64,000 bases of DNA, from the IMG/VR virus record IMGVR_UViG_2740892441_000001. The stretch is one strand, 5' to 3'. The notes beneath the pieces are model-generated. The model was not told where the DNA came from. It did not search any database and worked only from the letters and a program-made list of their open reading frames with translations. A program made the position numbers and the translations under genes. Below, piece after piece: positions 42,858 to 59,434 of the stretch (within the stretch, counting starts at the first letter, position 1; each line of letters starts with the position of its first letter). The stretch comes from a virus (taxonomy: Duplodnaviria; Heunggongvirae; Uroviricota; Caudoviricetes).

Positions 42858-43277
42858 ATGAAAGTAACAAACCTAATTATTCTGACACTAGCCACATCAC
42901 TAATTGGGTGTTCATCTTCATCTATATCTGTTTCAAAGGCAAAGTATGCGCCTCAAAGCAGAATATTTAAATATCAAACACCACATGAGTCTAGTCTAAC
43001 AATAGTTAGAGACAAAGGGCTGGTTGGTTCTGGATGTAACGCTTCCATATTCATCAATGGAGAAACGGCAGCAAAATTGGAACCTGGTGAAAAAGCAACT
43101 TTCTATCTTAATGAAGGAGATTGGATCGTTGGGACATCAATTGAAAGTTCAGGTCTTTGCGCATTTAACCCCTCTAGGATGGAGCGAGAAATAAAACTAA
43201 AGCAAGGCGACGCGAAAACATATCGGGTTTTCACTACCTGGGATGGTACAATGGATATATTGCCAACCACTTTATAA
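42858..43277 (+). CDS. lipoprotein
   Basis: 139-aa ORF; signal peptide with lipobox LIGC. Confidence 0.5.
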   Translation: MKVTNLIILTLATSLIGCSSSSISVSKAKYAPQSRIFKYQTPHESSLTIVRDKGLVGSGCNASIFINGETAAKLEPGEKATFYLNEGDWIVGTSIESSGLCAFNPSRMEREIKLKQGDAKTYRVFTTWDGTMDILPTTL

Positions 43278-43806
43278 TGATATGACGACGAAAGACATCA
43301 CCTACGGTGTGCCAGCAGAAGTCTGGCCTCGAGATTACACTAACGTTGAAAAACTACTGATGTTCTGGCGCAGAGAACAAATTCCTGTAAGGGCCACTCT
43401 AGAAGATGGCCAGGCGTTTTGCATGTACGTTTATGGCCTCATGCCATCTCGTAACAAAGTTGACCTTTGCCCAGCCCCTTTTGACAAAGAAAATCGTATA
43501 AGGCTCCCACTTGAACGCATTAGTACAATTGAATCAGGTGTGGTTGACAGTATCGCTCACGATTTCAAAGGTCGATTAACAGTTCACCCTGATTATGTCG
43601 ATAATCGGCCATCACGCCGCGATTTTTTTGCTATTTGCAACCAAGCCTATAAAGCAAACAAATCTATAAGGGTGTACATGGCGGATGGCCGTGAAATTGA
43701 GGGGGTGTCAGCAGGCGCAGATGCTTGTCAGGTTACACTACGTGTCGAGAACGGTAGAAAAATAGTTATTTTGTTCGATTGGGTTGAACGAATTTTGCCT
43801 TTTTGA
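43243..43806 (+). CDS. hypothetical protein
   Basis: 187-aa ORF; true start may be the internal Met about 40 nt downstream. Confidence 0.4.
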   Translation: MVQWIYCQPLYNDMTTKDITYGVPAEVWPRDYTNVEKLLMFWRREQIPVRATLEDGQAFCMYVYGLMPSRNKVDLCPAPFDKENRIRLPLERISTIESGVVDSIAHDFKGRLTVHPDYVDNRPSRRDFFAICNQAYKANKSIRVYMADGREIEGVSAGADACQVTLRVENGRKIVILFDWVERILPF

Positions 43807-47862: not shown

Positions 47863-47947
47863 GATGGTTTCCTTATTAAGTATTAAGTTGCTTCAGTGAA
47901 AGCATTTTCACAAATCAGATAAGGCAGAAAACAAATTATTATCGGGC

Positions 47948-50465: not shown

Positions 50466-50866
50466 TTTGGGAATGGCATATGCGTTATTTAGTTGTTTTG
50501 TTATGCCTGAAAATAAGTTGTTTATATGGTTATGTAACGCAACGGGAACGATTTTGAGCGTGTGTTTTTGTTGGTAGTGTGTTGGGTCGTCTGTGGTGAA
50601 AATTGGACGCTGTGGCGCTGTCTGCTGCGTAGGATTGCGGGTATAAGAAGTAATGTGTGAAAACGTCAATTTTTTAGACCAAATCGGGTGAAAGCGTTGA
50701 CGTTTCGTTGATCTGTTATTCAGTTGTTTTCTTGTTTGTATAAACAACTATAACCTATTGATATTTAAGGGTGTGATTGCAGGTATGGAAGGGGAGTAGT
50801 GGCGATCAACGGATTCTTATAGAAAAGAATCAAATTGTGACCGCCATTATCAATAAGTTGCAACCG

Positions 50867-51810: not shown

Positions 51811-52119
51811 TTACCATTGCCAGCACTCAAGCCCTTCAACGACCGGTGCGCCACAATCAAAATGTACAGAGTCAAAGCCTACATCAAGTACTTTCTGAAT
51901 GTTCGCAATCGCGCCCTCGGATATACCATATCGACGCAACTCATCTTTCCAGTCATCGTCCTGTAACCCGGCGTGGACAATGCAACCGTACTCAATTTGT
52001 GAAACCCAATCCAGCTCATTGCTTGCGATCATGAATCGGCGAGCATCTTCCTCTGATGTATGAGATGAGCTGATCAATGCCACCTGGTAGGCTTGGGTAA
52101 TGTTCAACATTTCAACCAC
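51811..52119 (-). CDS. hypothetical protein
   Basis: 102-aa ORF preceded by conserved motif. Confidence 0.4.
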   Translation of the reverse strand: MVEMLNITQAYQVALISSSHTSEEDARRFMIASNELDWVSQIEYGCIVHAGLQDDDWKDELRRYGISEGAIANIQKVLDVGFDSVHFDCGAPVVEGLECWQW

Positions 52120-52123
52120 TCCG

Positions 52124-52188
52124 AAACAATTTGTTTTCTTATGTGGCTTATTATCTCAATCAACAAAAGGCAGAAAACAAATTGTTTT
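52124..52188 (-). promoter_or_regulatory. conserved early promoter/operator motif (two half-copies)
   Basis: aaacaatttgttttcttatgtggcttattatc and aaaaggcagaaaacaaattgtttt. Confidence 0.45.
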
Positions 52189-52271
52189 AGGGTTTGTTAA
52201 AGTCAGAAGGGATTGTGTCTATATGAAAATGCCCAGCGTATTGCCGGGCATTGTGAAGAATGGTTGCTTAA

Positions 52272-54305
52272 TTACTTAACCTGGTGGCCAGGTTTAGCAC
52301 CAGCATCCGGGCTTAACAGGAAGATGTCTTTCCCGCCGGGGCCAGCAGCCATCACCATGCCTTCGGAGATACCGAAACGCATTTTACGCGGAGCCAGGTT
52401 AGCCACCATAATGGTGTGACGGCCAATCAGTGCCTGTGGGTCTGGATAAGCGGAACGGATGCCTGAGAAGACATTGCGTTTTTCACCGCCGAGATCCAGC
52501 GTCAGGCGCAGCAGTTTGTCAGAACCTTCAACAAAGTCTGCGTTTTCGATCAGCGCCACGCGCAGGTCAACTTTGGCAAAGTCGTCAAAGGTGATGGTTT
52601 CCTGAATCGGGTCGTCTGCCAGCGGGCCAGTAACTGGCGCGGCAGTAGCTTTCACTTCTTCTTTAGACGCTTCCACCAATGCTTCCACCTGTTTCATGTC
52701 GATACGGTTATACAGTGCTTTGAACGGATTCACTTTATGGCCCAGCAGCGGTTGCTGGATACCATCCCAGGTCAGTTCTGTATTCAGGAATGCTTCTGCA
52801 CGTTCAGTCAGTTTCGGCAGTACCGGCTTCAGGTACGTCATCAGCACGCGGAACAGGTTAATGCCCATAGAGCAAATCGCCTGCAGATCGGCATCGCGTC
52901 CTTCCTGCTTCGCCACCACCCACGGAGCCTGTTCATCGACATAGCGGTTAGCCAGGTCAGCCAATGCCATGATTTCACGGATAGCTTTACCAAATTCGCG
53001 GCTTTCCCATGCTTCGCCAATCACTTCAGCGGCATCAGTAAAGGTTTTGTACAGTTGCGAGTCAGCCAGTTCGCTTGCCAGCACGCCGTCAAAACGCTTG
53101 TTGATAAAGCCTGCATTACGGGAGGCCAGGTTAACCACTTTGTTCACGATATCGGCATTCACGCGCTGAACGAAATCCTCCAGGTTGAGATCGATATCAT
53201 CAATGCGCGAAGAGAGTTTCGCAGTGTAGTAGTAACGCAGGCTGTCGGCGTCAAAATGATTCATCCAGGTGCTGGCTTTAATAAAGGTGCCGCGAGACTT
53301 GGACATCTTCGCGCCGTTCACCGTCACATAGCCGTGAACAAACAGGTTGGTCGGCTTGCGGAAGTTGCTGCCTTCCAGCATGGCAGGCCAGAACAGGCTG
53401 TGGAAGTAAACGATATCTTTACCGATGAAGTGGTACAGCTCGGCGGTGGAGTCTTTCTTCCAGTATTCATCGAAGCTGGTAGTGTCGCCGCGCTTGTCGC
53501 ACAGATTCTTGAAGGAACCCATGTAGCCAATCGGTGCGTCCAGCCAGACGTAGAAATATTTACCCGGCGCGTTCGGAATTTCAAAACCGAAGTAAGGTGC
53601 GTCGCGGGAGATATCCCACTGTTGCAGACCAGATTCAAACCACTCCTGCATTTTGTTTGCCACCTGCTCCTGCAACGCACCGCTGCGGGTCCATGCCTGC
53701 AACATTTCGCTGAAAGAGGGCAGATCAAAGAAGAAGTGTTCAGAATCACGCATTACCGGCGTAGCGCCAGAAACTACCGATTTCGGCTCAATCAGTTCAG
53801 TCGGGCTGTAGGTCGCGCCGCAAACTTCACAGTTATCGCCGTATTGATCTGGCGCTTTACATTTCGGACAGGTGCCTTTCACAAAACGATCCGGCAGGAA
53901 CATGCCTTTTTCCGGGTCGTACAACTGAGAGATAGTGCGGTTTTTAATAAAACCGTTCTCTTTCAGGCGAGTATAGATAAGCTCAGACAGCTGGCGGTTC
54001 TCTTCGCTGTGCGTCGAGTGATAGTTGTCATAGCTGATGTTAAAGCCTGCGAAATCAGTCTGGTGTTCCTGGCTCATTTCGCCAATCATCTGTTCCGGTG
54101 TGATACCAAGCTGCTGTGCTTTCAGCATGATCGGCGTACCGTGGGCATCGTCGGCGCAGATGAAGTTGACCTCGTGGCCGCGCATTCGCTGGTAACGGAC
54201 CCAGACATCAGCCTGGATGTGCTCCAGCATATGGCCGAGGTGGATTGAGCCGTTAGCGTACGGCAGCGCGCACGTCACCAGAATTTTCTTCGCGACTTGG
54301 GTCAT
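52272..54305 (-). CDS. metG: methionine--tRNA ligase
   Basis: 677-aa protein from [25 protein letters not shown] (HLGH, KMSKS motifs, C-terminal tRNA-binding domain); matches E. coli MetG as I recall it; the 43-codon N-terminal extension in the ORF track is rejected. Confidence 0.95.
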
Positions 54306-54462
54306 AGTAGGCATTACTTCTTTGTAGTGAAAAGGGGCTTGATAGTAACAAAATGGCCTTATGTCTGCCATGTGATAACAGCATTTCTCATAAATGATTA
54401 AATGTCGTAGCTGGAGTACACTACAAGGCGACAATTGCGCAAATTAAAATAAAGGAGACGGG

Positions 54463-55563
54463 ATGAGCGAGTCCAAATCGCCGGATGCCCTGAGAGCAAT
54501 GGTAGCCGGTACGCTGGCTAATTTTCAGCACCCAACCCTGAAGCACAACCTGACTACGCTTAAAGCGTTACACCATGTTGCGTTGATGGATGACACACTG
54601 CATGTCGAACTAATCATGCCTTTCGTGTGGAATAAGCCTTTTGAAGACCTGAAAGAGCAATGTAGTGGTGATCTGCTCCGTATCACTGGCGCAAAGGCTA
54701 TCGACTGGAAGCTGTCGTACAACATTGCCACGCTTAAGCGCGTCAAAAACCAACCAGGCATTAATGGCGTTAAGAACATCATCGCCGTCAGCTCAGGCAA
54801 GGGCGGTGTAGGCAAATCGTCCACAGCAGTAAACTTGGCACTGGCGTTGGCTGCTGAAGGTGCGAAAGTTGGTATTTTGGATGCCGATATCTACGGTCCA
54901 TCAATTCCAACCATGCTGGGTGCGGAAAACCAACGTCCAACCTCACCGGACGGTACTCACATGGCACCTATCATGTCTCATGGCCTGGCAACCAACTCTA
55001 TTGGTTATCTGGTCACCGACGACAATGCAATGGTGTGGCGTGGACCGATGGCCAGCAAGGCGTTAATGCAGATGTTGCAGGAAACTCTATGGCCTGATCT
55101 GGACTATCTCGTTCTCGATATGCCGCCGGGCACTGGTGATATTCAATTGACGCTGGCGCAGAACATTCCTGTAACTGGTGCTGTTGTGGTAACTACGCCG
55201 CAAGATATCGCGCTGATCGATGCGAAGAAAGGCATTGTGATGTTCGAAAAAGTCGAAGTGCCGGTACTGGGTATCGTCGAAAACATGAGTGTGCATATTT
55301 GCAGTAACTGCGGTCATCACGAGCCAATTTTTGGCACCGGTGGCGCACAGAAGCTGGCCGAGAAATACAACACGCAGTTGTTAGGCCAAATGCCACTTCA
55401 TATCTCTCTTCGTGAAGATCTGGATAACGGAACACCAACCGTTATTAGTCGTCCAGATAGCGAATTTACGGCTATTTATCGTGACCTCGCAGATCGCGTT
55501 GCTGCCCAAATGTATTGGCAAGGTGAAGTAATACCTGGCGAAATCGCATTCCGCGCAGTGTGA
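54463..55563 (+). CDS. apbC: Fe-S cluster carrier ATPase ApbC/Mrp
   Basis: 366-aa ORF; deviant Walker A SGKGGVGKSS; CxxC motif; divergent from metG as in enterobacterial chromosomes. Confidence 0.95.
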   Translation: MSESKSPDALRAMVAGTLANFQHPTLKHNLTTLKALHHVALMDDTLHVELIMPFVWNKPFEDLKEQCSGDLLRITGAKAIDWKLSYNIATLKRVKNQPGINGVKNIIAVSSGKGGVGKSSTAVNLALALAAEGAKVGILDADIYGPSIPTMLGAENQRPTSPDGTHMAPIMSHGLATNSIGYLVTDDNAMVWRGPMASKALMQMLQETLWPDLDYLVLDMPPGTGDIQLTLAQNIPVTGAVVVTTPQDIALIDAKKGIVMFEKVEVPVLGIVENMSVHICSNCGHHEPIFGTGGAQKLAEKYNTQLLGQMPLHISLREDLDNGTPTVISRPDSEFTAIYRDLADRVAAQMYWQGEVIPGEIAFRAV

Positions 55564-55564
55564 T

Positions 55565-55592
55565 AAAAAGGTGGTGCAATGCACCACCTAAA
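55565..55592 (-). terminator. hairpin shared by the convergent apbC and umuD'-like genes
   Basis: aggtggtgcaatgcaccacct, flanked by an A/T run. Confidence 0.45.
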
Positions 55593-55600
55593 CAGTTCTC

Positions 55601-55990
55601 CTACATCACAGGACAATCATCAAACTCGCCACTTCTTGCGTCGTTGATAATGTGAGTGATCACACCAAACACGGCATTGCTGCCCGTGCATCCATCATCA
55701 TCCTTTGGCAATGCTTCCTTCTTACCAGTTCTTAAATCCTCCAGATGCTGACGTGGATACTTCCGGTATCTTTTTACGCGATATTCCCCATCCAGAGCAC
55801 ATACAAGAAGAGATCCATCAACAGGAGTGAGTGAGGAATCGACCACCAGCAATGCACCCTGCAATATTCCCTCACGATGATGACTATCAGCCGCCCTCAT
55901 GAAGTAGGTCGCTGAAGGATGTCTAATTATCTGCTGATCAAGAGAAATACGGCTCTCTGCATAATCCGCCGCAGGAGATGGGAAGCCCAT
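55601..55990 (-). CDS. UmuD'-like (HumD-type) S24 peptidase-fold protein
   Basis: 129-aa ORF starting MGFPSPAADY, i.e. at the position of the UmuD Cys24-Gly25 cleavage site; Ser/Lys dyad context retained (DSH, VKR); GAGGTG SD. Confidence 0.8.
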   Translation of the reverse strand: MGFPSPAADYAESRISLDQQIIRHPSATYFMRAADSHHREGILQGALLVVDSSLTPVDGSLLVCALDGEYRVKRYRKYPRQHLEDLRTGKKEALPKDDDGCTGSNAVFGVITHIINDARSGEFDDCPVM

Positions 55991-56008
55991 AGCGTTTTCA
56001 CCTCAAAA

Positions 56009-56028
56009 TACTGTTTATATATACAGTA
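56009..56028. promoter_or_regulatory. LexA (SOS) box
   Basis: TACTGTTTATATATACAGTA about 20 nt upstream of the umuD'-like start. Confidence 0.75.
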
Positions 56029-56160
56029 TACATGAAAGAAACCCACTTAGTGCAACCGATCGAGACTCTTCACCAAACAAAAATATTTTTCTCAAATAAG
56101 AAAAGGCAGAAAACAAATTGTTTAAGGCCACTAGTTGTGGCCTTAATGGGGGAGGGGTGC

Positions 56161-56685
56161 TTATTGGCTATGGCTAAAAATCAAATGAGACACTTCATGT
56201 GGTTGTAGCTCGTCAAGATCCGGGGCCACAAAACCTTTTCCGAAAGACTTCACAAGTGATTCACCAGCCGCATCATTGTCACCTATTACGCGAAAGTCAT
56301 ACGGCAGCATTGCCAGTTGACGACGTAATCCTGCTGAGAAAGTCGAACCTAACAGCGCCCACGAATTTCCGCCCGCGTTGTGCACTGCTGCACTTTTAAA
56401 AATCGACTCAGTTATCCATATCGGTCCATCTTTTAAAGGAAGATAGGTTCCCCATAGTAGCTGTCTGCCGTGCGCTCGTGTGAAATACCGGGCCATCTTC
56501 GGATTGCTATGCTGCTTAGGAGCGCCTGGTCTGTATGTCTGATACCCGGCCAACATCCCATCAAACCTGTATAGAGGGAACGTAACAACTCCTTCGCTTT
56601 CATCGATCCACTGTCTATATGGATGCACATCATGGCGGTAGTTGCGAGTTAGCAAATGAGCTTCCAGCTTTCCAAATTTGGTCAT
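56161..56685 (-). CDS. hypothetical protein
   Basis: Start moved to MTKFGK (GAGGGA SD). Confidence 0.4.
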   Translation of the reverse strand: MTKFGKLEAHLLTRNYRHDVHPYRQWIDESEGVVTFPLYRFDGMLAGYQTYRPGAPKQHSNPKMARYFTRAHGRQLLWGTYLPLKDGPIWITESIFKSAAVHNAGGNSWALLGSTFSAGLRRQLAMLPYDFRVIGDNDAAGESLVKSFGKGFVAPDLDELQPHEVSHLIFSHSQ

Positions 56686-56698
56686 AACTTCGCATCCC

Positions 56699-57553
56699 TC
56701 ATAACACTTCCCATTTATCACCATATTTCTCCATAGCTCTTAGCCAGTAAACATGGCCACTAGGCATAGTGATGTGAGGCTCGCCAAACTCTTCTCCATG
56801 CACATCAAAGATGTCCCCAACAGAGAATTGGGGGATTTCTACGCCGTTTTCACCTATATGCGTAATTCGTATACGTTTCGGTTGAAATTGTCCACCTTTG
56901 AGCGAGTTGTTCACTGCTCTGGCAATTTTCTCCCGCAATTGCTGCGTTACGTGGTACTGAACCGCAATATCCCGCAACTCGTTCACCAGTTCTCTAATCT
57001 GGTGATCTTTAAGCTCATTATTTGGGTGATGGGCAACAACTCTGGTTAATTCACCCTTGTCTTTTGCTCTTACGTATGCAGCTCTTGTGCATTCGACCCA
57101 TGTATTACCGCCTACATTAACTTCGTAGATTAGGCTGGACTTATCTGTCAATTCGGAACAAATACGGGCCGTGGTCTGGCAACTAGAGCATTCGCAGTTA
57201 TCGCGGAAACCGTGGTCTACTGGCTGCGGTTTCACATCATCAACTTTTTCTACCCTATTGGAATTTAAATACTTCGAAGCCTTGCTATGCCAATCGCTGG
57301 TTTTAGGATCTTGTCCATCCATCAAACGCCAGGCTTCAGCGATTAACTCATAACTAGTGACTGTAGCTTCCTGCGCATCACCAATAAGTCGTGTAATCTC
57401 TCTTTCAAGCCGACCGCCTAGCTCTGTTTTAGTGCAATGTTCTGACCAATCGCCAGCCTCAAGCAGCGCGAGAATGCTTAAAATATCGTCCAATAGAACG
57501 GTAGTATTATCGACTTCCTTCTGAAACTCACCGGCTACTGATTTATGCATCAT
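56699..57553 (-). CDS. hypothetical protein
   Basis: 284-aa ORF with cysteine cluster CECSSC in the middle. Confidence 0.4.
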   Translation of the reverse strand: MMHKSVAGEFQKEVDNTTVLLDDILSILALLEAGDWSEHCTKTELGGRLEREITRLIGDAQEATVTSYELIAEAWRLMDGQDPKTSDWHSKASKYLNSNRVEKVDDVKPQPVDHGFRDNCECSSCQTTARICSELTDKSSLIYEVNVGGNTWVECTRAAYVRAKDKGELTRVVAHHPNNELKDHQIRELVNELRDIAVQYHVTQQLREKIARAVNNSLKGGQFQPKRIRITHIGENGVEIPQFSVGDIFDVHGEEFGEPHITMPSGHVYWLRAMEKYGDKWEVL

Positions 57554-57852
57554 TCGTCATCCTCATCCGAGTCATCCTCATCACAGGATGAGAGTAGTGG
57601 GTTAGTCATTCGCCCTACTTGAGTGGCGTAGCCACGCCGACAGAGATTGCGCAGCACACTGTATATTTCGAACATCTCGGTTCGTTCATCGCCAACATCA
57701 AGCTCAGATGCTATAGCGTGGCATTCAGTCGCGAGAGCCGATATTTTCTGAAATAACTCTGCTTTATTCACTCTTAGACTCCTGCGGAGGTTCTGGTAGC
57801 GGCATCCAGTGAGTTGCTTGCTCAATACCATTACCCGGCTTAATCGTTGCAT
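57550..57852 (-). CDS. hypothetical protein
   Basis: 100-aa ORF with acidic C-terminal tail. Confidence 0.3.
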   Translation of the reverse strand: MQRLSRVMVLSKQLTGCRYQNLRRSLRVNKAELFQKISALATECHAIASELDVGDERTEMFEIYSVLRNLCRRGYATQVGRMTNPLLSSCDEDDSDEDDE

Positions 57853-58498
57853 CTCCGCGCCGAAAGGTGCTTCCGGTATAGCGTGCGGAGCATATTAGCG
57901 GTTCAACCAGAGAGCTATCGAAATTCACCGAAATAAGCACGTTCTGGCCCTTTTCAGGCATTCGCTCACTACAGCTTATCCAACCATCCGGAGTTACCGG
58001 ATTGTTGCCAGCCTCATACGCGACCCTTATCCAGTGCATAAGCATTTCAGTACTTACACATCCACAATCAACATCAATTTTGTCATGCTGCTGTTCCAGC
58101 CATTGCTCAAAAGTTAACTTGTAAGTTTGGCTTACAGGTTTGGCTTCCAGTTCTGCTATGTGATTTTTGGCTGATTCCAACTCAATCGACAATTTTTCCA
58201 ACTGCTCTTTATGATTTTTATATTCCTGATATGCGTGCCAAGACTGACCTTTGCGCACACTATCAGTGATATCAGCAACCTGCTCTGGTGTTAGCGTGGT
58301 CAGTGGCTGTGCTGGAAAAATCATCACTTGCCCGGCATCCCAATCAAAACCCGCCTGAATTGACTGAACCTCAACTGATGGTGTTGAACCGATGCGACCA
58401 GGCGAATGAACAACGATCGTTACATCCATATCGCGACGATGGCTGTGGTTGTTGGACAAAATACGATTCACCGACTCAGAAAATTTGGAAAATTTCAT
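57764..58498 (-). CDS. DUF551-like prophage protein
   Basis: Start moved to MKFSKF (AGAGGGG SD); C-terminal [13 protein letters not shown] segment. Confidence 0.45.
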
Positions 58499-58821
58499 GC
58501 TGACCCCTCTTTCTCTCCCCGGATAATTCTGTTGCACACATCCACACACTCGTCGCAGATGAAAACGGCGTCCCCAGCAATTAACTTTTTGACGGCGTAC
58601 TGGGATTTGTTGCAGAAGCTGCAACAAAGTGTTCGCCTGGCTGATAAGGATGGAGCGCCAGATGTCAGCCGCTCCATATCGTTCTTGCGACGCAATATCA
58701 CACGGCTGAACTCAACCAGTTTCTCCGGGGATATCTCCTCCTCCTCCGTAGCGAGCGTCTCTAGTCGTTCGAGTATGTGGAAGGCTTTTTCCTGGGTAAT
58801 TGCAGAATGCGATGTGGTCAT
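58495..58821 (-). CDS. ClpX N-terminal zinc-binding-domain-like protein
   Basis: Start moved to MTTSHS (GGAGAG SD); C-terminal [28 protein letters not shown] resembles the ClpX C4 zinc ribbon. Confidence 0.5.
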
Positions 58822-58822
58822 C

Positions 58823-59434
58823 TCACTCTCCTTTGATGCGAATGCCAGGGGCGCGTGGCACATTAACTTCCACGATGCGCACTGTTGGTTTGTACATCTC
58901 AATCGCTGTCAGCCAGTCAGCTCCTGTCATGCGCTTTTCCGCATCGCCATTAGTCCACTGAACCGGTACACCAATAGCCTTCATCGCGATTTCTATTTCC
59001 CCGGCAATGGCGCTTTTTCCGCAACCAGTAAAACCAGATACAACGACCAGAACTTCACCTTTGGCTGGTTTTATTTCCCGTGCTTCCAGTTCTGCAATGC
59101 GCTTACTTCCATCCGAGATAACGCCCTCGTAATACTCACGCTGCTCGTTGAGTTTTGATTTTGCCAACTCCAGTTGTTTTGTTAGTTCTGCAATACGACA
59201 AACATCGTTGATACGCGTTTCCTCTAATGCGTTGCTCTCATCCAGTAGCGCCAGCACGGTTTCTGGTCCGGCCAGAAATTTGAAGGCGTTGAGGGCATCA
59301 ATATCAACACCGCTATCTTTAAGTTCCTGTTCGCTTATCAGATCATCATCAACTGGCAACATTAACAGGCGTTCCATTGCCGGAATTGCACGCTCTGCCG
59401 CCTCACGCAGTGCCTGATAGTCAATCTTGCTCAC
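58823..59434 (-). CDS. Ea22-like coiled-coil protein with P-loop
   Basis: 203-aa ORF; N-terminal coiled coil; [12 protein letters not shown]alker A-like motif. Confidence 0.4.

Follow-up and report, generated by a model that had tools for sequence, protein, structure and literature searches.

The 64,000-nucleotide stretch of DNA analysed here (the window), from IMG/VR virus record IMGVR_UViG_2740892441_000001 of the Caudoviricetes, contains two bacterial housekeeping genes between blocks of phage-like genes, and the question it raises is how these genes came to lie in a viral record and why they are kept there. The genes are metG, which encodes methionine-tRNA ligase (methionyl-tRNA synthetase, MetRS; 677 amino acids, intact; minus strand, 52272-54305), and apbC, also named mrp, which encodes an iron-sulfur (Fe-S) cluster carrier ATPase (366 amino acids, intact; plus strand, 54463-55563). 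The original prediction had left three origins open: capture of host genes by a phage or phage-plasmid, an insertion hot spot hit twice by related elements, or a chimeric assembly. The best explanation as a whole, held with considerable confidence, is that the cassette is cargo of a phage-plasmid and constitutes an intact, insulated second copy of metG and apbC.

Phage-plasmid backbone and distribution of the cassette

Segment 52100-55700 of the window, which includes both junctions of the gene pair, was used as the query for sequence comparison. The segment was 100% covered at 96-97% identity in 4 phage genome records, and 200 of the 212 matching plasmid records in PLSDB covered most of it, 190 at 95-99.1% identity. 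Carriers include pECOH89 (whose cassette is 96.9% identical to that of the window), a plasmid of E. coli O104:H4 2009EL-2050, a Shigella sonnei plasmid, and plasmids of E. albertii and E. fergusonii; the closest relative of the window is the avian E. coli plasmid pPSUO78_2 (99.1%). Among complete E. coli genomes, a chromosomal copy ~90% identical to the window was found in 5426 of 5426, together with 228 further places on plasmids. Since every E. coli genome has its chromosomal copy, the plasmid metG-apbC is always an extra copy, and its 228 plasmid places correspond to carriage by about 4% of the 5426 complete genomes.

The comparison with closed genomes that had been proposed alongside the original prediction placed the cassette and its junctions in circular plasmids and a separate copy on the chromosome. 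A chromosomal metG-apbC contig misjoined into phage-plasmid contigs would be suggested by nothing beyond the odd gene content and the step up in guanine-plus-cytosine (G+C) content within the cassette. The junctions are identical in 200 independently assembled plasmid records, among them many complete circular plasmids, and in the 4 phage genome records, and a cassette only ~90% identical to any E. coli chromosome cannot be the chromosomal copy of the host. The probability of a chimeric assembly is regarded as negligible; the locus is a known and genuine feature, not an assembly artefact.

By gene content and homology, the window is ~64 kb of an SSU5/pHCM2/pECOH89-like phage-plasmid of Escherichia and not chromosome. 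A siphovirus morphogenesis and packaging module is present, encoding the terminase large subunit, portal, a 1403-amino-acid tape measure, a central tail fibre J-like protein and a tail fibre. Plasmid maintenance genes, for ParB-like partition and a replicative helicase, are present as well: a DnaB-like helicase was annotated among the window proteins at 4798-6138, and the left-flank match to phages Cyrano and SSU5 spans genes annotated there as ParB (SSU5_125 and SSU5_126 in SSU5). The flanks were 94-98% identical to Escherichia phages Cyrano, CMS-2020a and PhiR41_1 and 80-89% identical to Klebsiella phage-plasmids, while Salmonella phage SSU5 matched the window at 82.7-89.2% over the blocks in common. 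Matches spanning 80% or more of the terminase gene were found in 460 plasmid records. Siblings are on record both as complete circular plasmids (~110 kb) and as phage genome records; read from these siblings, the molecule represented by the 64-kb window would also be circular and extrachromosomal and would form virions, that is, it would be a siphovirus kept as a ~110-kb plasmid. The SSU5/pHCM2/pECOH89 family of phage-like plasmids has been described previously (PMC3999498; PMC7969092).

Two related prophages or islands flanking a chromosomal metG-apbC locus, the hot-spot option, would account for two phage-like flanks with motifs in common. The flanks are indeed phage-like and transcribed in one direction, as had been claimed: all flanking open reading frames (ORFs) lie on the minus strand and were assigned to phage families by profile matches. 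The E. coli chromosomal neighbours of the pair (a DUF4132 gene, yehE and yehD) are absent beside the cassette, however, and homology to the chromosome spans the metG stop to the apbC stop (52271-55559) with nothing beyond these two stop codons. The flanks are not ordinary neighbours of metG and apbC but contiguous SSU5-like backbone, adjacent to one another in circular ~110-kb plasmids. A chromosomal locus hit twice is given practically no credence, and the recurrence of the cassette and its junctions on that backbone bears out the remaining option, in which a phage-plasmid captured host genes and the two flanks are parts of a single element. An explanation by att site and integrase was dropped, as the element is a plasmid-form phage with contiguous flanks. 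Scans of the whole window returned no tRNA gene and no Rfam family; neither a tRNA-type integration site nor any known RNA element therefore plays a part.

In PLSDB, at a threshold of at least 95% identity, the terminase gene was found in 185 records and the cassette in 189. The cassette was absent from the SSU5-like clades at 80-90% terminase identity (Enterobacter, Yersinia, Salmonella, Klebsiella and Citrobacter) and is, as judged from these records, a marker of the Escherichia/Shigella clade. Plasmid matches at 80-95% identity were considered as independent captures and rejected, being mislabelled chromosome-sized records (0.39-5.4 Mb).

Anatomy of the cargo slot

Plasmid pTB212 (NZ_CP033252.1) has the same left-flank gene and the same right-flank gene, humD, with a DUF4145 gene between them at the position of metG-apbC (positions 5745-6488 of locus L084). 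Homology between pTB212 and the window breaks off right after a palindrome at the inner edge of the left flank (the distal palindrome described below, ending at 52187) and is picked up again at the stop codon of humD (55601). Since pTB212 holds another gene between the same flanking genes, 52188-55600 (no strand assigned) is a variable cargo slot of the backbone, filled here by metG-apbC, and it equals almost exactly the interval 52190-55600 marked in the original prediction. The G+C content is 0.50-0.51 over 52-55 kb versus 0.43 at 50-52 kb and 0.454 at 56-57 kb. A plasmid search with a query joining the left and right flanks found none with an empty slot; pTB212, with its different cargo, emerged from it. 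A type I restriction-modification M subunit is encoded a few kilobases further on in pTB212 (L084 11016-11960), and this gene together with the DUF4145 gene indicates that the region swaps defence-type cargo too.

In pZ1323HEC0016-2 (NZ_CP148383.1), der directly follows apbC and replaces humD (L086 4800-6293). This gene, which encodes the essential ribosome-assembly GTPase EngA, was also observed in NZ_CP072690.1 and NZ_CP146383.1, so that the small sub-lineage consists of one E. coli and two Escherichia marmotae plasmids; the plasmid der is ~91% identical to chromosomal E. coli der. It is a second translation-related housekeeping gene gathered at the metG-apbC slot.

Within the slot, metG and apbC are divergent in the same orientation as on the E. 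coli chromosome, in agreement with the original prediction. The start of metG was set at the true ATG, past which a 720-amino-acid, TTG-initiated ORF in the program-made list continues, and gene identities were assigned by homology to annotated siblings and by NCBIfam models. The presumed native divergent promoter region between the genes (54306-54462, no strand) was compared by interspecies alignment; its 45 nucleotides adjoining metG are conserved across all species compared, and the region is 100% conserved among the three plasmid copies aligned. Folding identified an intrinsic terminator after metG (52221-52252, minus strand) with a 10-bp stem at 52228-52252 followed by UUUUCAU (-16.9 kcal/mol, z = -4.9), the sequence of which is unrelated to the hairpins at the same position in E. 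coli, E. albertii, Citrobacter and Enterobacter. A bidirectional terminator hairpin between apbC and humD (55569-55589, both strands) was detected by folding and by a terminator scan; one strand folds at -15.8 kcal/mol (z = -5.4) and the other at -15.3 kcal/mol (z = -4.6). In Cyrano, its stem shows a compensatory pair of changes, T>C / A>G.

This anatomy is best read as that of a moron, an autonomous and insulated unit placed in a phage genome: the slot content varies among siblings, the cassette has its own terminators and a base composition unlike that of its flanks, and the native divergent intergenic region, as the putative promoter component, has been kept. Two exact 23-nt direct repeats (52165-52187 and 56101-56123), 3.9 kb apart, bracket the metG-apbC-humD block. 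These repeats could act as recombination substrates for module gain or loss; the joined-flank plasmid search found no product of recombination between them.

Selection, mosaicism and proposed function

Both proteins have the features of intact enzymes. MetG scored 1017.6 bits against NCBIfam model NF001100 (cut-off 587) and 700 against TIGR00398 (cut-off 336), its C-terminal tRNA-binding and dimerisation domain scored 161.5 against TIGR00399 (cut-off 116.7), and the class I motifs HLGH and KMSKS are visible in the translation. Plasmid and chromosomal E. coli MetG are 98.7% identical in amino acids and 94.1% in nucleotides, with only 9 amino acid differences between the window protein and the E. 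coli enzyme; L348M, P416S and E590D are private to the window, and A554T, located outside the catalytic core, is the sole plasmid-typical substitution. ApbC scored 759.3 bits against NF008669 (cut-off 348) and displays the deviant Walker A motif GKGGVGKS and the CXXC cluster-binding motif CSNC; the window gene is 82.6% identical to that of E. coli in nucleotides and 94.8% in amino acids.

The reading frames of both genes are intact in 9 of 9 plasmid copies examined. Omega was ~0.02 in every comparison, while synonymous divergence among plasmid copies reached 0.13-0.23. For apbC, 8 of the 9 copies encode an identical protein, with 0 non-synonymous versus up to 34 synonymous differences (proportion of synonymous differences, pS, up to 0.13), and the ninth copy differs at 3 residues. 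These values place metG and apbC under strong purifying selection, and the plasmid MetRS is presumably a normal enzyme, its aminoacylation activity being expected from 98.7% identity and omega of ~0.02. A recent, accidental, transduction-like pick-up without function for the element would fit the absence of a recognisable mobility scar and the co-captured neighbour apbC, which looks like hitch-hiking. Such a neutral passenger is hard to reconcile with a cassette that essentially all of the E. coli clade carries (189 versus 185 records), with the divergence and omega values, with ApbC unchanged among 8 copies and with frames intact in all 9; it is considered extremely unlikely. Intact frames, low omega and an identical ApbC show that the cassette is not a decaying passenger.

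Plasmid-borne duplicates of aminoacyl-tRNA synthetases are a known resistance strategy, as exemplified by mupA, a plasmid-borne duplicate isoleucyl-tRNA synthetase that confers mupirocin resistance. The metG copy resembles mupA-type duplicates in being a second copy of an essential synthetase on a mobile element. A second, drug-insensitive MetRS is nevertheless very improbable. Sequence comparison revealed no divergence of the plasmid MetG from the housekeeping enzyme at an inhibitor or active site, its only plasmid-typical change lies outside the catalytic core, and conversion tracts make parts of the gene identical to the chromosomal allele. Unlike mupA, the enzyme is nearly identical to its chromosomal counterpart (98.7%), and this near-normal sequence argues against a replacement target and for an effect of dosage or regulation.

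The two genes have discordant ancestry. The synonymous substitution rate (dS) of metG to E. coli is 0.29, lower than that between E. coli and E. albertii (0.365), whereas for apbC dS is ~1.5 to both E. coli and Citrobacter, compared with 0.60 for E. coli versus E. albertii and 1.16 for E. coli versus Citrobacter. The apbC-side half of the intergenic region contains a 23-nt block that is present in Citrobacter and absent from Escherichia. Variation among plasmids is much greater in metG than in apbC: the apbC genes of Cyrano and pAVS0747 are identical, and their metG genes show 95 synonymous differences. In a sliding comparison, nt 601-1800 of pECOH89 metG differ from the E. coli chromosomal allele at a single position, while most windows beyond this tract show 7-15 mismatches per 120 nt; shorter chromosome-like tracts are present at nt 241-480 in S. 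sonnei and pAVS0747 metG. Most simply read, the genes would have been captured long ago from an enterobacterium other than E. coli, after which alleles of the resident chromosome would have converted the plasmid metG repeatedly and in patches.

In the proposed sequence of events, an ancestor of the E. coli clade would have taken up a 3.4-kb chromosomal fragment, with a terminator at either end and, between these, metG, apbC and the divergent promoter region they share, in the slot between a DUF5983-like promoter module and the humD stop. As a moron, the cassette would provide every carrier cell with a second wild-type-like MetRS and a second ApbC; purifying selection would keep both proteins while the host chromosomal metG repeatedly overwrites the plasmid metG in patches. 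The most likely benefit would be a shift in MetRS dosage or heterogeneity that changes Met-tRNA charging and translation initiation and would steer translation physiology toward antibiotic survival. Perturbation of metG changes antibiotic persistence (PMC11004401). According to PMC12452169, which cites Tam et al. 2024 (medRxiv 10.1101/2024.10.27.24316207), expression of a phage-plasmid metG yields a sub-population predisposed to the acquisition of cephalosporin resistance.

Alternatively, MetRS and ApbC might mainly aid the lytic cycle or counter host defence, by sustained translation initiation and by helping Fe-S enzymes to mature (the ribonucleotide reductase encoded by the element would be one example), with persistence as a by-product. 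Large phages unrelated to the element also encode MetRS in a few cases, namely Pseudomonas phage Y5, Acinetobacter phage MD-2021a, Microcystis phage MaAM05 and two ~635-kb uncultured phage contigs (LR745206.1 and LR756504.1); SSU5-type genomes contain nrdAB, thyA and a dihydrofolate reductase gene (SSU5 annotation; PMC3999498); and the sister sub-lineage added der at the same slot. These parallels lend some weight to a phage-serving role, which is nonetheless judged unlikely, because the cassette appears to have kept host-type regulation, its terminators insulate it from the phage operons, and it contains none of the operator sites of the backbone.

Several points weigh against an insulated second metG-apbC that acts through MetRS dosage. 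The anatomy and evolution of the cassette are well supported, but the phenotype comes from the literature, by way of a secondary citation. Persistence is raised by reduced MetRS function (PMC11004401), and the same effect from an extra wild-type-like copy is not obvious. An account by MetRS dosage offers no role for ApbC despite the complete conservation of the protein, and between metG and apbC a scan for consensus sigma-70 promoters gave no call. As to a donor, a scan of GTDB genomes with MetG gave only ordinary chromosomal orthologues, the best being that of E. albertii (92.8% nucleotide identity for metG and 81.3% for apbC), and a search of 5.8 billion proteins with ApbC found nothing chromosomal closer than ~95% amino acid identity, in protein clusters at 90% identity that merge the plasmid and chromosomal ApbC types.

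Cargo status of the cassette remains the favoured explanation. Phage-plasmid-borne metG is already published (Tam et al. 2024, as cited in PMC12452169), metG-apbC is already annotated in about 190 plasmids, and the core finding is known; the details of selection, mosaicism and operators are modest additions to a known phenomenon. In that phenomenon, a spare essential translation enzyme on a virus-plasmid hybrid would alter how the host copes with antibiotics, with surviving sub-populations favoured according to the work on the Shigella sibling, as cited there. The complete conservation of the ApbC protein, the discordant ancestry, the metG conversion tracts, the variable slot (DUF4145, der) and the operator motif found throughout the backbone offer handles on why the pair is kept and on how the element is regulated.

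Backbone operators, neighbouring genes and known systems

Three sites with one motif and a ggccac..gtggcc hairpin had been taken as a tie between the flanks. The 23-mer AAAAGGCAGAAAACAAATTGTTT is real: it occurs exactly at 52165-52187 and 56101-56123 and with 3 mismatches at 60284-60306 and at 47919-47941, the last being a fourth copy (minus strand, by motif search) missing from the original prediction, whereas shuffled sequences gave 0 matches expected by chance. The hairpin accompanies the right-hand copies only (56122-56146 and 60307-60327); the left copy has instead a second, inverted copy of the palindrome (52124-52136). A special tie between the flanks did not survive comparison, since the motif is a backbone-wide element with 14 sites in 43 kb of SSU5, which lacks metG and apbC.

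The palindrome AAACAAnTTGTTT at the core of the motif has 12 sites with at most 1 mismatch in the window versus 0.46 expected (6158, 8187, 36783, 36808, 46669, 47154, 48832, 49316, 50511, 52124, 52175 and 56111), and the 14 SSU5 sites compare with 0.2 expected. Exact copies were present in 10 of 10 phage-plasmid loci and 0 of 81 others (chromosomal metG loci in 80 cases; ~620 kb in all). For 16 of the 26 sites, the distance from the end of the site to a downstream start codon is 11-40 nt, and a terminator hairpin directly adjoins 5 others. Two layouts were distinguished. In the proximal class, TTTTnnGCCTTwT is followed by 9-10 nt, GATAAT, ~13 nt (ACCAAyAAGA), the palindrome, a Shine-Dalgarno sequence and ATG, and 11-40 nt separate the end of the palindrome from the start codon. 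Sites of the distal class run from a terminator hairpin (GGCCAC..GTGGCC) through the palindrome and TCTrCCTTTT to GAtAAT, the palindrome lying over the -35 region. From these layouts the motif is best understood as marking ordinary backbone promoters, not an insertion scar: the left copy would be the promoter of the DUF5983-like gene downstream of metG, and the right copy lies upstream of humD.

The left module (52124-52187, minus strand; counterparts in SSU5 at L091 28320 and 28371) is assembled from the distal palindrome at 52175-52187, a CTGCCTTTT box, a GATAAT -10-like hexamer at 52150-52155 and the proximal palindrome at 52124-52136. On the right, the terminator hairpin at 56122-56146 (-15.6 kcal/mol, z = -5.8) is fused to a distal-type palindrome and promoter module at 56101-56123 (minus strand), and a third hairpin and motif module at 60284-60327 (minus strand; -12.2 kcal/mol, z = -3.8; SSU5 counterpart at L091 25603) lies upstream of an HD-domain gene at 59909-60238. 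At some promoters both sites are present, and such dual palindromes are spaced 51 bp from centre to centre in the window (52130/52181) and in SSU5 (L091 28326/28377), a distance of five helical turns that suggests cooperative binding of a dimeric DNA-binding regulator. The -35 region of the backbone promoters does not resemble that of sigma-70 promoters, and transcription may therefore require a factor encoded by the element. An ORF at 43243-43806 (plus strand) encodes an FljA-like protein (PF03614, E = 1e-83, a homologue of 'repressor of phase-1 flagellin'), the counterpart of SSU5_121, annotated 'transcriptional repressor'. The protein may be the one that regulates the palindrome regulon, or it may modulate host flagellin. 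Salmonella FljA acts on an mRNA leader, which makes control at the RNA level at the proximal site an alternative. Among the 15 matches listed by a full-text literature search for AAACAAnTTGTTT, none dealt with gene regulation in phages or bacteria.

Taken together, the data permit a joint reading that is offered tentatively. An old mosaic capture would have brought in apbC and its side of the intergenic region from an unsampled, non-Escherichia enterobacterial donor; the ApbC protein, frozen on the phage-plasmid, would itself be selected cargo and not a hitch-hiker; metG would have been patched by host conversion; and the dual AAACAAnTTGTTT sites would form an undescribed operator regulon of the SSU5 supergroup, with the FljA-like protein as a possible regulator. 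If this is true, continual patching of metG would make the phage-plasmid a shuttle for core-gene alleles between Escherichia species.

Among the neighbouring genes, all on the minus strand, profile matches in the left flank were to phrog_5003 (DUF5983 domain), phrog_11467 and phrog_12486; the phrog_5003 gene at 51811-52110, a 300-nt coding sequence in siblings, carries the DUF5983 domain at its C-terminus. The right flank contains UmuD-like humD (peptidase S24 profile; 55601-55990), a primase fragment, an HD-domain protein and a DUF4942 methyltransferase. A LexA (SOS) box, TACTGTTTATATATACAGTA, was read from the sequence at 56009-56028 (no strand), between the backbone promoter module and humD; it matches the consensus CTGT-N8-ACAG perfectly, and a similar box is present in pTB212. 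humD is common to the P1-like phage-plasmids D6 and RCS47, and patches of 55610-59750 (humD and neighbours) are 89-92% identical to these two elements, which indicates, from sequence similarity, module exchange between both phage-plasmid families. A ~390-nt non-coding stretch at 50480-50866 begins with a palindrome site and has extreme strand asymmetry, C/A-rich on the gene strand (GC skew +0.34 and AT skew -0.31 in the 50-51 kb bin); it contains no tandem repeat and no Rfam match, SSU5 holds a similar stretch after L091 30741, and no tandem repeats were found in 44-52.2 kb as a whole.

The SSU5/pHCM2/pECOH89 family has in common with the window its morphogenesis, replication and partition modules, its gene order and the palindromic promoter/operator motif; SSU5 itself is without metG, apbC and humD. 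The closest precedent for the cassette is the S. sonnei phage-plasmid pWPMR2, whose metG is carried on the same SSU5-type backbone and in the same cassette; S. sonnei LR213459.1 (108 kb) is 96.7% identical over the whole cassette, at the same position and with the same flanks. A survey placed pWPMR2 in clade K of the SSU5 supergroup and reported it also in E. coli clonal complexes (CC) CC131, CC23 and CC73 (bioRxiv 10.1101/2025.09.12.675607). Highly variable metG copies are noted in the pWPMR2 literature, matching the mosaicism seen here, and the texts on pWPMR2 metG, the primary paper aside, make no mention of apbC, the slot structure or the operator motif. Unlike the pWPMR2 lineage, the window is closest to pPSUO78_2 and its MetG has three private substitutions.

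The moron concept of temperate phages is reportedly due to Hendrix and co-workers. Like morons, the cassette is an autonomous unit of distinct base composition, with its own terminators and a putative promoter region, in a slot that varies among siblings; unlike the usual ones, it carries an essential or core housekeeping pair and not a virulence or exclusion gene, and it is still in recombinational contact with its chromosomal homologue. The promoter-early stem-loop (PeSL) cassettes of T4-type phages, which are said to mediate modular shuffling (Arbiol et al. 2010, reportedly), offer a second parallel: in both systems small gene modules are delimited by a terminator hairpin that recurs in fusion with a conserved promoter, and here two identical 23-nt copies bracket the metG-apbC-humD block. 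In contrast to T4-type PeSL, modular shuffling at the present repeats is conjectural, the sequences of the two systems are unrelated, and a palindromic operator, often paired 51 bp apart, has been added to the hairpin and promoter.

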